A DNA stretch of 39,093 nt from the sequence record AY264775.1. One strand, 5' to 3'. This stretch comes from Escherichia phage T7. Under the pieces are notes generated by a model. The model was not told the DNA's origin. It did not search any database and saw nothing but the letters and a program-made list of their open reading frames with translations. Shown here one piece after another: positions 1-39,093 of the stretch. How positions within the stretch are numbered: position 1 is the stretch's first letter; the number at the start of each line of letters is the position of its first letter. Made by a program: the position numbers and the translations under genes.

Positions 1-136
1 TCCCCCCTAGGGGGTACCTAAAGCCCAGCCAATCATCTAAAGTCAACCTTCGGTTGACCTTGAGGGTTCCCTAAGGGTTGGGGATGACCCTTGGGTTTGT
101 CTTTGGGTGTTACTTTGAGTGTTTCTCTGTGTCCCT
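1..136. repeat. Left terminal direct repeat (partial; window starts about 24 nt inside the T7 TR)
   Basis: 1..136 matches 38958..39093 at the other end of the window apart from 3 mismatches; sequence is the T7 TR. Confidence 0.9.
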
Positions 137-145
137 ATCTGTTAC

Positions 146-320
146 AGTCTCCTAAAGTATCCTCCTAAAGTCACCTCTTAACGTCCATCCTAAAGCCAAC
201 ACCTAAAGCCAACACCTAAAGACCCATCAAGTCAACGCCTATCTTAAAGTTTAAACATAAAGACCAGACCTAAAGACCAAACCTAAAGACACTACATAAA
301 GACCAGACCTAAAGACGCCT
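146..320. repeat. Left-end array of imperfect CCTAAAG-type short repeats (T7 concatemer-processing/packaging region)
   Basis: Repeated cctaaag / acctaaag / cataaag units read directly in sequence. Confidence 0.8.
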
Positions 321-363
321 TGTTGTTAACCATAAAGGGATAACCTTTAATCATTGTCTTTAT

Positions 364-386
364 TAATACAACTCACTATAAGGAGA
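364..386 (+). promoter_or_regulatory. T7 RNAP promoter phiOL
   Basis: taatacaactcactataaggaga, close match to 23-bp T7 promoter consensus. Confidence 0.8.
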
Positions 387-437
387 GACAACTTAAAGAG
401 ACTTAAAAGATTAATTTAAAATTTATCAAAAAAAGTA

Positions 438-474
438 TTGACTTAAAGTCTAACCTATAGGATACTTACAGCCA
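438..474 (+). promoter_or_regulatory. Host sigma70 early promoter A1
   Basis: -35 ttgact (438-443), 17-bp spacer, -10 gatact (461-466); position matches T7 A1. Confidence 0.85.
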
Positions 475-564
475 TCGAGAGGGACACGGCGAATAACCAT
501 CCCAATCGACACCGGGGTCAACCGAATAAATAGACAGCCTGATAAGTCGCACGAAAAACAGGTA

Positions 565-602
565 TTGACAACATGAAGTAACATGCAGTAAGATACAAAT
601 CG
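565..602 (+). promoter_or_regulatory. Host sigma70 early promoter A2
   Basis: -35 ttgaca (565-570), -10 taagat (589-594). Confidence 0.8.
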
Positions 603-689
603 CTAGGTAACATTAGCAGCGTCAACCGGGCGCACAGTGCCTTCTAGGTGACTTAAGCGCACCACGGCACATAAGGTGAAACAAAACAG

Positions 690-726
690 TTGACAACATG
701 AAGTAAACACGGTACGATGTACCACA
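690..726 (+). promoter_or_regulatory. Host sigma70 early promoter A3
   Basis: -35 ttgaca (690-695), 17-bp spacer, -10 tacgat (713-718). Confidence 0.8.
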
Positions 727-814
727 TGAAACGACAGTGAGTTACCACACTGAAAGGTGATGCGGTCTAACGAAACCTGACCTAAGACGCTCTTTAACAA
801 TCTGGTAAATAGCT

Positions 815-872
815 CTTGAGTGCATGACTAGCGGATAACTCAAGGATATCGCAAGGTGCCCTTTATGATATT
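815..872 (+). promoter_or_regulatory. RNase III processing site R0.3 (approximate)
   Basis: ctcaagg...ccctttatgat hairpin motif upstream of gene 0.3, same family as the other T7 RNase III sites in the window. Confidence 0.5.
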
Positions 873-900
873 CACTAATAACTGCACGAGGTAACACAAG

Positions 901-1254
901 ATGGCTATGTCTAACATGACTTACAACAACGTTTTCAACCACGCTTACGAAATGCTGAAAGAAAATATCCGTTATGATGACATCCGTGACACTGATGACC
1001 TGCACGATGCTATTCACATGACTGCCGATAATGCAGTTCCGCACTACTACGCTGACATCTTTAGCGTAATGGCAAGTGAGGGCATTGACCTTGAGTTCGA
1101 AGACTCTGGTCTGATGCCTAACACTAAGGACGTAATCCGCATCCTGCAAGCGCGTATCTATGAGCAATTAACGATTGACCTCTGGGAAGACGCAGAAGAC
1201 TTGCTCAATGAATACTTGGAGGAAGTCGAGGAGTACGAGGAGGAGGAAGAGTAA
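901..1254 (+). CDS. 0.3: Ocr, DNA-mimic anti-restriction protein (gp0.3)
   Basis: 117-aa ORF, acidic C-terminus, recognisable Ocr sequence. Confidence 0.95.
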
Positions 1255-1409
1255 TGTCTACTACCAACGTGCAATACGGTCTGACCGCTCAAACTGTATT
1301 TTTCTATAGCGACATGGTGCGCTGTGGCTTTAACTGGTCACTCGCAATGGCACAGCTCAAAGAACTGTACGAAAACAACAAGGCAATAGCTTTAGAATCT
1401 GCTGAGTGA
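1254..1409 (+). CDS. 0.4: gp0.4 (small early protein, reported FtsZ inhibitor)
   Basis: 51-aa [13 protein letters not shown]...; start overlaps the 0.3 stop (TAATG). Confidence 0.8.
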   Translation: MSTTNVQYGLTAQTVFFYSDMVRCGFNWSLAMAQLKELYENNKAIALESAE

Positions 1410-1410
1410 T

Positions 1411-1452
1411 AGACTCAAGGTCGCTCCTAGCGAGTGGCCTTTATGATTATCA
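1411..1452 (+). promoter_or_regulatory. RNase III site R0.5 (approximate)
   Basis: actcaaggtcgctcctagcgagtggcctttatgatt hairpin motif. Confidence 0.5.
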
Positions 1453-1471
1453 CTTTACTTATGAGGAAGTA

Positions 1472-1615
1472 ATGTATATGCTTACTATCGGTCTACTCAC
1501 CGTTTTAGATCTAGCTGTAGGTGCATCCTTTGGGAAGGCTTTAGGTGTAGCTGTAGGTTCCTACTTTACCGCTTGCATCATCATAGAAATCATCAAAGGG
1601 GCACTACGCAAATGA
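1472..1615 (+). CDS. 0.5: gp0.5, small hydrophobic early protein
   Basis: 47-aa [15 protein letters not shown]... preceded by gaggaag SD; the longer track ORF 1406..1615 begins inside the RNase III site. Confidence 0.75.
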
Positions 1616-2256
1616 TGAAGCACTACGTTATGCCAATCCACACGTCCAACGGGACAACCGTATGTACACCTGATGGGTTCGCAATGAAACAACGAATCGA
1701 ACGCCTTAAGCGTGAACTCCGCATTAACCGCAAGTTCTTTGAGGGCATCGCCTCATTCGACATGCATAGCGGGAACATCATGTTCTCAAATGGAGACGTA
1801 CCATACATCACCAACCCGGTATCATTCTCGCAGAAGAAAGATGGTGGCGCATTCAGCATCGACCCTGAGGAACTCATCAAGGAAGTCGAGGAAGTCGCAC
1901 GACAGAAAGAAATTGACCGCGCTAAGGCCCGTAAAGAACGTCACGAGGGGCGCTTAGAGGCACGCAGATTCAAACGTCGCAACCGCAAGGCACGTAAAGC
2001 ACACAAAGCTAAGCGCGAAAGAATGCTTGCTGCGTGGCGATGGGCTGAACGTCAAGAACGGCGTAACCATGAGGTAGCTGTAGATGTACTAAGAAGAACC
2101 AATAACGCTATGCTCTGGGTCAACATGTTCTCTGGGGACTTTAAGGCGCTTGAGAAACGAATCGCGCTGCACTGGCGTAATGCTGACCGGATGGCTATCG
2201 CTAATGGTCTTACGCTCAACATTGATAAGCAACTTGACGTAATGTTAATGGACTGA
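1612..2256 (+). CDS. 0.6/0.7: In-frame fusion: N-terminal ~41 aa of gp0.6 joined to the C-terminal ~173 aa of gp0.7 (host-transcription shutoff part; protein kinase domain deleted)
   Basis: ORF starts [14 protein letters not shown] (gp0.6) and continues ...RINRK|[17 protein letters not shown]... (gp0.7 C-terminal region); length accounting against T7 indicates ~820 bp missing here. Confidence 0.8.
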
Positions 2257-2261
2257 TAGTC

Positions 2262-2312
2262 TTATCTTACAGGTCATTTGCGGGTGGCCTGAATAGGTAC
2301 GATTTACTAACT
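2262..2312 (+). promoter_or_regulatory. RNase III site R1 (approximate)
   Basis: Hairpin-forming leader upstream of gene 1 at the T7 R1 position. Confidence 0.45.
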
Positions 2313-2326
2313 GAAAGAGGCACTAA

Positions 2327-4978
2327 ATGAACACGATTAACATTGCTAAGAACGACTTCTCTGACATCGAACTGGCTGCTATCCCGTTCAACACTCTGGC
2401 TGACCATTACGGTGAGCGTTTAGCTCGCGAACAGTTGGCTCTTGAACATGAGTCTTACGAGATGGGTGAAGCACGCTTCCGCAAGATGTTTGAGCGTCAA
2501 CTTAAAGCTGGTGAGGTTGCGGATAACGCTGCCGCCAAGCCTCTCATCACTACCCTACTCCCTAAGATGATTGCACGCATCAACGACTGGTTTGAGGAAG
2601 TGAAAGCTAAGCGCGGCAAGCGTCCGACAGCCTTCCAGTTTCTGCAAGAAATCAAGCCGGAAGCCGTAGCGTACATCACCATTAAAACCACTCTGGCTTG
2701 CCTAACCAGTGCTGACAATATAACCGTTCAGGCTGTAGCAAGCGCAATCGGTCGGGCCATTGAGGACGAGGCTCGCTTCGGTCGTATCCGTGACCTTGAA
2801 GCTAAGCACTTCAAGAAAAACGTTGAGGAACAACTCAACAAGCGCGTAGGGCACGTCTACAAGAAAGCATTTATGCAAGTTGTCGAGGCTGACATGCTCT
2901 CTAAGGGTCTACTCGGTGGCGAGGCGTGGTCTTCGTGGCATAAGGAAGACTCTATTCATGTAGGAGTACGCTGCATCGAGATGCTCATTGAGTCAACCGG
3001 AATGGTTAGCTTACACCGCCAAAATGCTGGCGTAGTAGGTCAAGACTCTGAGACTATCGAACTCGCACCTGAATACGCTGAGGCTATCGCAACCCGTGCA
3101 GGTGCGCTGGCTGGCATTTCTCCAATGTTCCAACCTTGCGTAATTCCTTCTAAGCCGTGGACTGGCATTACTGGTGGTGGCTATTGGGCTAACGGTCGTC
3201 GTCCTCTGGCGCTGGTGCGTACTCACAGTAAGAAAGCACTGATGCGCTACGAAAACGTTTACATGCCTGAGGTGTACAAAGCGATTAACATTGCGCAAAA
3301 CACCGCATGGAAAATCAACAAGAAAGTCCTAGCGGTCGCCAACGTAATTACCAAGTGGAAGCATTGTCCGGTCGAGGACATCCCTGCGATTGAGCGTGAA
3401 GAACTCCCGATGAAACCGAAAGACATCGACATGAATCCTGAGGCTCTCACCGCGTGGAAACGTGCTGCCGCTGCTGTGTACCGCAAGGACAAGGCTCGCA
3501 AATCTCGCCGTATCAACCTTGAGTTCATGCTTGAGCAAGCCAATAAGTTTGCTAACCATAAGGCCATCTGGTTCCCTTACAACATGGACTGGCGCGGTCG
3601 TGTTTACGCTGTGTCAATGTTCAACCCGCAAGGTAACGATATGACCAAAGGACTGCTTACGCTGGCGAAAGGTAAACCAATCGGTAAGGAAGGTTACTAC
3701 TGGCTGAAAATCCACGGTGCAAACTGTGCGGGTGTCGATAAGGTTCCGTTCCCTGAGCGCATCAAGTTCATTGAGGAAAACCACGAGAACATCATGGCTT
3801 GTGCTAAGTCTCCACTGGAGAACACTTGGTGGGCTGAGCAAAATTCTCCGTTCTGCTTCCTTGCGTTCTGCTTTGAGTACGCTGGAGTACAGCACCACGG
3901 CCTGAGCTATAACTGCTCCCTTCCGCTGGCGTTTGACGGGTCTTGCTCTGGCATCCAGCACTTCTCCGCGATGCTCCGAGATGAGGTAGGTGGTCGCGCG
4001 GTTAACTTGCTTCCTAGTGAAACCGTTCAGGACATCTACGGGATTGTTGCTAAAAAAGTCAACGAGATTCTACAAGCAGACGCAATCAATGGGACTGATA
4101 ACGAAGTAGTTACCGTGACCGATGAGAACACTGGTGAAATCTCTGAGAAAATCAAACTGGGCACTAAGGCACTGGCTGGTCAATGGCTGGCTTACGGTGT
4201 TACTCGCAGTGTGACTAAGCGTTCAGTCATGACGCTGGCTTACGGGTCCAAAGAGTTCGGCTTCCGTCAACAAGTGCTAGAAGATACCATTCAGCCAGCT
4301 ATTGATTCCGGCAAGGGTCTGATGTTCACTCAGCCGAATCAGGCTGCTGGATACATGGCTAAGCTGATTTGGGAATCTGTGAGCGTGACGGTGGTAGCTG
4401 CGGTTGAAGCAATGAACTGGCTTAAGTCTGCTGCTAAGCTGCTGGCTGCTGAGGTCAAAGATAAGAAGACTGGAGAGATTCTTCGCAAGCGTTGCGCTGT
4501 GCATTGGGTAACTCCTGATGGTTTCCCTGTGTGGCAGGAATACAAGAAGCCTATTCAGACGCGCTTGAACCTGATGTTCCTCGGTCAGTTCCGCTTACAG
4601 CCTACCATTAATACCAACAAAGATAGCGAGATTGATGCACACAAACAGGAGTCTGGTATCGCTCCTAACTTTGTACACAGTCAAGACGGTAGCCATCTTC
4701 GTAAGACTGTAGTGTGGGCACACGAGAAGTACGGAATCGAATCTTTTGCACTGATTCACGACTCCTTCGGTACCATTCCGGCTGACGCTGCGAACCTGTT
4801 CAAAGCAGTGCGCGAAACTATGGTTGACACATATGAGTCTTGTGATGTACTGGCTGATTTCTACGACCAGTTCGCTGACCAGTTGCACGAGTCTCAATTG
4901 GACAAAATGCCAGCACTTCCGGCTAAAGGTAACTTGAACCTCCGTGACATCTTAGAGTCGGACTTCGCGTTCGCGTAA
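2327..4978 (+). CDS. 1: T7 RNA polymerase (gp1)
   Basis: 883-aa ORF, essentially identical to canonical T7 RNAP apart from a handful of substitutions. Confidence 0.99.
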   Translation: MNTINIAKNDFSDIELAAIPFNTLADHYGERLAREQLALEHESYEMGEARFRKMFERQLKAGEVADNAAAKPLITTLLPKMIARINDWFEEVKAKRGKRPTAFQFLQEIKPEAVAYITIKTTLACLTSADNITVQAVASAIGRAIEDEARFGRIRDLEAKHFKKNVEEQLNKRVGHVYKKAFMQVVEADMLSKGLLGGEAWSSWHKEDSIHVGVRCIEMLIESTGMVSLHRQNAGVVGQDSETIELAPEYAEAIATRAGALAGISPMFQPCVIPSKPWTGITGGGYWANGRRPLALVRTHSKKALMRYENVYMPEVYKAINIAQNTAWKINKKVLAVANVITKWKHCPVEDIPAIEREELPMKPKDIDMNPEALTAWKRAAAAVYRKDKARKSRRINLEFMLEQANKFANHKAIWFPYNMDWRGRVYAVSMFNPQGNDMTKGLLTLAKGKPIGKEGYYWLKIHGANCAGVDKVPFPERIKFIEENHENIMACAKSPLENTWWAEQNSPFCFLAFCFEYAGVQHHGLSYNCSLPLAFDGSCSGIQHFSAMLRDEVGGRAVNLLPSETVQDIYGIVAKKVNEILQADAINGTDNEVVTVTDENTGEISEKIKLGTKALAGQWLAYGVTRSVTKRSVMTLAYGSKEFGFRQQVLEDTIQPAIDSGKGLMFTQPNQAAGYMAKLIWESVSVTVVAAVEAMNWLKSAAKLLAAEVKDKKTGEILRKRCAVHWVTPDGFPVWQEYKKPIQTRLNLMFLGQFRLQPTINTNKDSEIDAHKQESGIAPNFVHSQDGSHLRKTVVWAHEKYGIESFALIHDSFGTIPADAANLFKAVRETMVDTYESCDVLADFYDQFADQLHESQLDKMPALPAKGNLNLRDILESDFAFA

Positions 4979-6946: not shown

Positions 6947-7039
6947 ATGATGTACTTAATGCCATTACTCATCGTCATTGTAGGATGCCTTGCGCTCTAC
7001 TGTAGCGATGATGATGATATGCCAAATGGTCACGCTTAA
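6947..7039 (+). CDS. 1.5: gp1.5 (30 codons here; contains a GAT x4 run)
   Basis: ORF MMYLMPLLIVIVGCLALYCSDDDDMPNGHA. Confidence 0.7.
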   Translation: MMYLMPLLIVIVGCLALYCSDDDDMPNGHA

Positions 7040-13082: not shown

Positions 13083-13490
13083 ATGCGTGACCCTAAAGTT
13101 ATCCAAGCAGAAATCGCTAAACTGGAAGTTGAACTGGAGGACGTTAAGTACCATGAAGCTAAGACTCGCTCCGCTGTTCACATCTTGAAAAACTTAGGCT
13201 GGACTTGGACAAGACAGACTGGCTGAAAGAAACCAGAAGTTACCAAGTTGAGTCATAAGGTGTTCGATAAGGACACTATGACCCACATCAAGGCTGGTGA
13301 TTGGGTTAAGGTTGACATGGGAATTGTTGGTGGATACGACTACGTCCGCTCAGTTAGTGACAAATATGCACAAATGTCATACATCACAGATGTTACTCCA
13401 CGCGGTGCAATCGTTACCGATAAGACCAACATGATTCACACAGATTTCTTGACAGTTGTTTCATATGAAGAGATTGTTAAGTCACGATAA
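13083..13490 (+). pseudogene. 4.7: gp4.7 reading frame interrupted by an in-frame TGA at 13224-13226 (codon 48 of 135)
   Basis: ATG at 13083 after phi4.7 and an SD; same frame continues to the stop at 13488-13490; the track splits it into ORFs 12954..13226 and 13248..13490 in one frame. Confidence 0.8.
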
Positions 13491-16306: not shown

Positions 16307-16515
16307 TGTCTGACTATCTGAAAGTGCTGCAAGCAATCAAAAGTTGCCCTAAGACTTTCCAGTCCAACTATGTACGGAACAATGCGAGCCTCGTAGCGGA
16401 GGCCGCTTCCCGTGGTCACATCTCGTGCCTGACTACTAATGGACGTAACGGTGGCGCTTGAGAAATCACTGCTTCCGATATTCGCTTTCTGAAACGAATG
16501 AGAGGATGTGTCTAA
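16306..16515 (+). pseudogene. 5.7: gp5.7 (inhibitor of sigma-S RNA polymerase) interrupted by an in-frame TGA at 16459-16461 (codon 52 of 69)
   Basis: MSDYLKVLQAIKSCPKTFQSNYVRNNASLVAEAASRGHISCLTTNGRNGGA*EITASDIRFLKRMRGCV*. Confidence 0.8.
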
Positions 16516-16673
16516 TGTCTCGTGACCTTGTGACTATTCTACGCGATGTGTGAAACGATATACAGGGCTACATCGACTCTCTGGAACGTGAGAACGATAG
16601 CCTTAAGAATCAACTAATGGAAGCTGACGAATACGTAGCGGAACTAGAGGAGAAACTTAATGGCACTTCTTGA
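16515..16673 (+). pseudogene. 5.9: gp5.9 (RecBCD inhibitor) interrupted by an in-frame TGA at 16551-16553 (codon 13 of 52)
   Basis: MSRDLVTILRDV*NDIQGYIDSLERENDSLKNQLMEADEYVAELEEKLNGTS*. Confidence 0.85.
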
Positions 16674-38933: not shown

Positions 38934-39093
38934 TCTCACAGTGTACGGACTTAAAGTTCCCCCATAGGGGGTACCTAAAGCCCAGCCAATCATCTAAAGT
39001 CAACCTTCGGTTGACCTTGAGGGTTCCCTAAGGGTTGGGGATGACCCTTGGGTTTGTCTTTGGGTGTTACTTTGAGTGTCTCTCTGTGTCCCA
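38934..39093. repeat. Right terminal direct repeat (full copy)
   Basis: Begins tctcacagtgtacgga...; 38958..39093 is the counterpart of window 1..136. Confidence 0.9.

Follow-up and report, generated by a model that had tools for sequence, protein, structure and literature searches.

An 820-bp Deletion at a 7-bp Direct Repeat Fuses Genes 0.6A and 0.7 in the Genome of a Bacteriophage T7 Isolate

Introduction

The Escherichia phage T7 genome in sequence record AY264775.1 carries, left of gene 1, one open reading frame that begins as gene 0.6 and ends as gene 0.7. Is this frame a new gene that has been kept for what it encodes, or the incidental remains of a deletion? The window analyzed here is the whole stretch (39,093 nucleotides; one strand, 5′ to 3′). 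Positions are those of the window unless T7 is named, and the T7 reference is NC_001604, with which flank offsets were compared directly.

The product of gene 0.7 has a kinase (PK) domain at residues 1 to 242 and a shutoff (SO) domain at residues 243 to 359 (PMC13645617), matching the N-terminal kinase and C-terminal shutoff functions assumed in an earlier note on this DNA. Substitution G76F renders gp0.7 catalytically dead, and the Asp of a DFG-like DPV motif (residues 213 to 215) coordinates Mg-ATP (PMC13645617). The SO domain binds DNA, is highly toxic, and is insoluble without DNA; it has been reported to inhibit host transcription alone, with no need of the kinase, and to affect some defence systems independently of the kinase (PMC13645617). 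In the same work, partial 0.7 mutants outdid the full deletion in fitness on some strains, and T7K was reported as a broad anti-defence kinase that the SO domain directs to DNA-bound proteins (PMC13645617). For gp0.6, the reported target is MreB (PMC6965359).

Deletions in the early region have been described as common when T7 is grown in rich medium (PMC6042481, PMC6009699), and one reached fixation in T7 adapting to a laboratory host (PMC8923235); the earlier note's remark that such deletions are frequent in laboratory T7 thus accords with published descriptions. Deletions in genes 4.5 to 4.7 share 7 to 9 bp of homology (PMC8923235). Cunningham et al. 1997, as summarized in PMC5850294, reported 9 deletions and 11 nonsense mutations with nitrosoguanidine.

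Genome background

The first 3,000 positions of the window read as the T7 left end. In a megablast search of 50,697 phage records, the best match of the window was T7 (two pieces, 98.4 to 98.6% identity); over its whole length, the window is 98.3 to 99.0% identical to T7. Substitutions relative to NC_001604 number 414, among them 390 G:C>A:T changes (94%; 199 G>A and 191 C>T) and 11 transversions. A spectrum dominated by G:C>A:T is that expected of the alkylating mutagen nitrosoguanidine. Judged by this spectrum, the divergence is a mutagen signature (of an alkylating agent such as nitrosoguanidine) and not natural divergence. Synonymous sites of essential genes give a neutral G:C>A:T rate of 2.6% per G/C site, and the same genes hold 114 non-synonymous and 117 synonymous changes against a neutral non-synonymous fraction of 0.64 (p = 3e-6), a strong depletion of non-synonymous changes.

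A GenBank series from one study comprises AY264774 (T7+), AY264776 (K115), AY264777 (P), and AY264778 (P82), and a few N bases occur in sibling records of this series. The window genome is most likely, from its sequence, isolate K of a University of Texas experimental-evolution series, which we take to be the T7 lineages that Hillis, Bull, Molineux, and colleagues propagated with nitrosoguanidine.

Deletion breakpoints

Window positions 1 to 1734 match T7 25 to 1758 without a gap (offset, 24), and positions from 1728 onward match T7 from 2572 onward (offset, 844; 533 of 540 positions identical, versus about 130 at adjacent offsets). Exactly 820 bp are deleted, with a placement that is ambiguous over 7 bp (T7 1752 to 2571 through T7 1759 to 2578), and the remaining genome is collinear with T7 except for one 3-bp gain and one 3-bp loss. 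The direct repeat CCGCAAG stands in T7 at 1752 to 1758 and again at 2572 to 2578; a single copy is left in the window (positions 1728 to 1734, plus strand), and both T7 flanks match across these 7 bases. The earlier note had proposed, from constant offsets of 24 and 844, that about 820 bp were missing and that the junction lay around 1728 to 1740 on a shared CCGCAAG. Alignment with T7 across the interval bears out the offsets, makes the loss exact, and narrows the junction to the repeat itself, so that the breakpoints and their 7-bp microhomology are defined, the interval is shortened relative to T7, and the 0.6/0.7 chimera stands.

Junctions that keep one copy of a direct repeat arise classically by slipped-strand or short-homology recombination. 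There are four occurrences of CCGCAAG in T7 1434 to 3170, and of some 1.5 million pairs of positions in this interval, 163 share a 7-mer. For two breakpoints placed at random, 7 shared bases would be expected only once in roughly 10^4 cases, and the 7-bp homology at the junction is not a chance feature. With 163 such pairs, deletion substrates are plentiful in this interval, and the CCGCAAG event is therefore one of many possible.

The deletion removed codons 42 to 53 of the 53 codons of 0.6A, the 0.6B extension (to T7 1972), the ribosome-binding site and start codon of gene 0.7, and gp0.7 residues 1 to 186. Both the full-length 53-amino-acid gp0.6A and the frameshifted 0.6B extension are consequently absent, and gp0.6 is truncated to residues 1 to 41. 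Placed at T7 1759 to 2578, the deletion stays within 0.6A through 0.7, which are non-essential and lie left of gene 1, and includes no annotated promoter. A promoter and terminator scan of positions 1300 to 2400 found nothing, so no obvious signal was created by the junction.

A megablast search with the junction (positions 1640 to 1830) found the same join in none of the phage records, K115 having lost this stretch by deletion. With the fusion protein as the tblastn query, 861 phage records matched, with at least 80% query coverage in 297 of them; among the full-coverage matches listed, none encodes the chimera in one piece, and it is always split into two pieces that span at least 1.2 kb. 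The MZ3752xx T7 records were considered as candidates for parallel deletions; the one inspected, MZ375237, is an engineered clone without 0.4 to 0.6 and with an intact kinase.

Reading frame and domain content

Gene 0.5, intact with A11V, G13D, and G39E, lies just upstream in the same early-gene block (positions 1472 to 1615, plus strand; T7 1496 to 1639, offset 24), and its stop codon overlaps the start of the fusion in an ATGA (positions 1612 to 1615, plus strand). The chimeric open reading frame runs on the plus strand from an ATG at 1612 to a TGA at 2254 to 2256 and encodes 214 amino acids; a program-made list gave a 227-codon open frame at 1573 to 2256, within which 1612 is the start equivalent to the T7 ATG. 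This start codon is the native start of gene 0.6, with an AAAGGGG ribosome-binding region upstream.

Compared with the T7 proteins, the translation consists of gp0.6A residues 1 to 41 (ending in RINRK) followed in the same frame by gp0.7 residues 187 to 359, with a predicted mass of 25.2 kDa and a pI of 10.3 (from composition). The 0.6A-derived part (codons 1 to 41; positions 1612 to 1734, plus strand) is ungapped relative to T7 1636 to 1758 and has A15T as its sole substitution. The junction repeat codes for R40-K41 of gp0.6A, which correspond to R185-K186 in gp0.7. It is followed by what remains of the gp0.7 kinase domain (residues 187 to 242; positions 1735 to 1902, plus strand) and by the complete SO, or DNA-binding, domain (residues 243 to 359; positions 1903 to 2253, plus strand), as delimited by the T7 alignment and published domain limits (PMC13645617). 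Gene 0.7 is in frame +1 relative to 0.6A (2021 − 1636 = 385) and 820 = 1 mod 3, so the two genes are joined in frame. PHROGs returned a family for each part: residues 1 to 52 match phrog_8393 (gp0.6 family; E, 7e-24), and residues 38 to 213 match phrog_2828 (serine-threonine kinase; positions 184 to 365 of 366; E, 3.5e-56). The in-frame gp0.6-gp0.7 chimera described in the earlier note is thereby confirmed. Pfam gave no model above noise for gp0.7 or for the fusion, and a PDB sequence search returned no relative of the protein.

The fusion keeps 173 of the 359 residues of gp0.7 (48%), rather than the C-terminal third that had been estimated. Missing from the PK domain is 77%, including the ATP-binding N-lobe and the region with G76. 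A kinase-negative product is predicted, because residues 1 to 186 are gone, among them G76, whose change to Phe is by itself catalytically fatal. The further claim that the kinase domain is lacking holds for residues 1 to 186 and fails for residues 187 to 242, which remain with a DMHSGN loop (DxHxxN-type; residues 195 to 200, positions 1759 to 1776) and with the autophosphorylation sites that lie in this segment. Its DPV motif (positions 1813 to 1821) reads NPV through D213N, a G>A change at 1813.

All 117 residues of the SO domain are present, and 113 are identical to the wild type; residues 243 to 305, which include the basic helix, are unchanged, and the four substitutions are G306R, E327K, A355V, and G359D. 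An AlphaFold2 (AF2) single-sequence model (no alignment) has a long helix at about fusion residues 90 to 150 (pLDDT, at least 90) and pLDDT below 50 at residues 1 to 26 and 35 to 81, which together take in most of the leader from 0.6A and of the kinase remnant. As weak evidence, the model fits an N-terminal part that is unfolded and an SO helix that is intact. For annotation, the labels “protein kinase” and “intact 0.6A” are unsuitable for 1612 to 2256; we suggest gp0.6A′::′gp0.7 deletion chimera, predicted kinase-dead, SO domain kept.

Related isolates

K115 (AY264776) has all 27 of the window-specific gene 1 substitutions, plus one of its own, and shares flanking substitutions with the window, whereas isolate P has only 2 of the window-specific gene 1 substitutions in common. 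The window is therefore the parent of K115 or a near-identical sibling of that parent. K115 differs in lacking genes 5.3 to 5.9 and in a further deletion of 770 bp (window positions 1481 to 2250), which takes gene 0.5 and the entire fusion. This second deletion lies between the imperfect repeats GTAATGTATATG and GTAATGTTAATG (window positions 1469 to 1480 and 2239 to 2250; about 1469 to 1486 in K115). A C>T change in the window at 2240 (A355V) raises the homology from 5 to 7 bases, so the next deletion may owe its substrate to a mutagen-induced change at this position.

Isolates P and P82 (AY264777, AY264778), from an independent mutagenized lineage, resemble the window in having an in-frame deletion (819 bp) that destroys the kinase. 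Theirs differs in being internal to gene 0.7 (T7 2169 to 2987; about 2145 to 2150 in the isolates), at the imperfect repeat AGGC(A/G)CTTGAG; about 49 residues of gp0.7 are kept at the N-terminal end and about 37 at the C-terminal end, most of the SO domain is gone, and 0.6A is intact. By sequence comparison, this is a parallel kinase loss in a second lineage. The window, K115, and P together illustrate how short repeats mediate deletions in the early region of T7 and that gene 0.7 can be dispensed with on laboratory hosts.

Early-region deletions among the classical T7 deletion mutants (Studier 1973; Studier et al. 1979) are likewise said to form between short direct repeats. The fusion deletion shares with those mutants, and with the parallel deletions that nitrosoguanidine treatment gave (Cunningham et al. 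1997), its place among the non-essential genes to the left of gene 1, the removal of 0.7 function, the viability of the phage, and a spontaneous origin in laboratory passage (PMC6042481, PMC6009699, PMC5850294); what sets it apart are the exact breakpoints (T7 1759 to 2578) and the in-frame 0.6A::0.7 chimera. It is a typical laboratory deletion of a kind already known, in a genome from a published series.

Engineered alleles of gene 0.7 include G76F (kinase-dead, SO+), delta-SO (kinase+, SO−), and delta-0.7 (PMC13645617). The fusion resembles G76F in being predicted kinase-negative with the SO domain kept. It differs in losing the kinase by removal of residues 1 to 186 rather than by a point mutation and in carrying 41 residues of gp0.6A as a foreign leader, together with four substitutions in the SO domain.

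Origin of the fusion

The substitutions observed in what is left of 0.7 number 5 non-synonymous, 1 synonymous, and 0 nonsense, against a neutral expectation of 4.4, 2.2, and 0.39, respectively. There is no sign of constraint, and the counts fit the neutral expectation, a weak test with 6 changes (Fisher p = 0.21); some of these substitutions may be older than the deletion. Two features were considered as evidence of selection and rejected: the open frame, since the probability of no stop under neutrality is 0.64 to 0.68, and the in-frame join, for which the chance is one in three anyway. That the frame is still open and the basic helix unchanged is equally expected of a retained function.

The strongest argument on this question is that K115 deleted the entire open reading frame, and because of this and of the neutral pattern in the remnant we regard the fusion as an incidental by-product. 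We give a probability of about 0.85 to the reading that the window is a mutagenized laboratory T7 in which a single 820-bp repeat-mediated deletion left the chimera as a by-product rather than as a selected new gene. A laboratory T7 lineage would have been propagated under nitrosoguanidine-type mutagenesis, and recombination or replication slippage between the CCGCAAG copies in 0.6A and 0.7 would have removed the 820 bp in one event. The in-frame join would yield a 25-kDa basic protein if translated from the 0.6 start. In effect this would be a loss-of-function deletion of 0.7 with the chimeric frame as a side product, and the whole fusion was later deleted in K115.

Unlikely, in our estimation, is the opposite reading, that the fusion is a functional “shutoff-only” protein kept as advantageous. 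It draws on the presence of the entire SO domain (residues 243 to 359) with residues 243 to 305 unchanged, on two of the four SO substitutions adding positive charge, on a frame open from the native 0.6 start codon, and on the long AF2 helix; the SO domain by itself is reported to inhibit host transcription, and partial mutants were fitter than the full deletion on some strains (PMC13645617). Yet a descendant, K115, discarded the whole fusion, the independent deletion in P also took most of the SO domain, and this domain is highly toxic and insoluble without DNA (PMC13645617), while the substitution pattern in the remnant, the open frame, and a join that one in three random deletions would leave in frame all match what chance would give.

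If expressed, the fusion may still have residual SO activity, with its start codon, the region upstream of it, and its SO domain all intact; retained shutoff, as proposed in the earlier note, is plausible. That the chimera is made from the 0.6 start and retains SO DNA binding and host shutoff, as a naturally arisen kinase-minus/shutoff-plus allele, we consider a tentative proposal, somewhat less probable than its negation. If true, it would be a ready-made separation-of-function allele of 0.7, with a potency possibly altered by G306R and E327K. In view of the reported anti-defence role of T7K, such an allele could be a handy reagent; G76F and similar engineered alleles already exist.

A junction found in no second record searched, in a series where sibling records have a few N bases, could stem from an error of assembly or sequencing in the deposited genome, but this is very improbable given a clean one-copy direct-repeat join with perfectly matching flanks on both sides, a length of 39,093 that agrees with the offsets throughout, and comparable real deletions in the same region of sibling lineages. 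Scarcely credible, even though the 0.3 to 0.7 region varies among natural Teseptimavirus relatives, is a native arrangement, without any deletion, in which a T7-like phage from nature has a short 0.6/0.7-like gene, in view of flanks about 98 to 99% identical to T7, differences that are 94% G:C>A:T, substitutions common to sibling laboratory isolates, and the division of the chimera into two pieces spanning at least 1.2 kb in all the full-coverage tblastn matches listed.

Other sequence changes

The only other indels are a GAT gained at positions 7007 to 7009 (an extra Asp in gene 1.5) and 3 bp lost after 7355, one codon early in gene 1.7; because the two cancel, downstream positions keep the offset of 844. 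Three Trp codons have become stop codons, all by G>A, in the non-essential genes 4.7 (W48*, 13224 to 13226), 5.7 (W52*, 16459 to 16461), and 5.9 (W13*, 16551 to 16553), and gene 4.7 has 8 more non-synonymous changes.

Two Shine-Dalgarno sequences carry a G>A change that is kept in K115, that of gene 0.5 at position 1467 (GAGGGAG>GAGGAAG) and that of gene 1 at position 2313 (CTGGAAGAGG>CTGAAAGAGG). Gene 0.3 (ocr; positions 901 to 1254) is intact, with the non-synonymous changes D13N, A41T, D74N, and D115E, three of which remove or alter acidic residues of this DNA mimic.

The record starts 24 bases into the left terminal repeat of T7 and stops about 1 base before the right end, so its ends are slightly incomplete. 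Its terminal repeats (positions 1 to 136 and 38934 to 39092) differ from the wild type at 4 and 3 positions, respectively.
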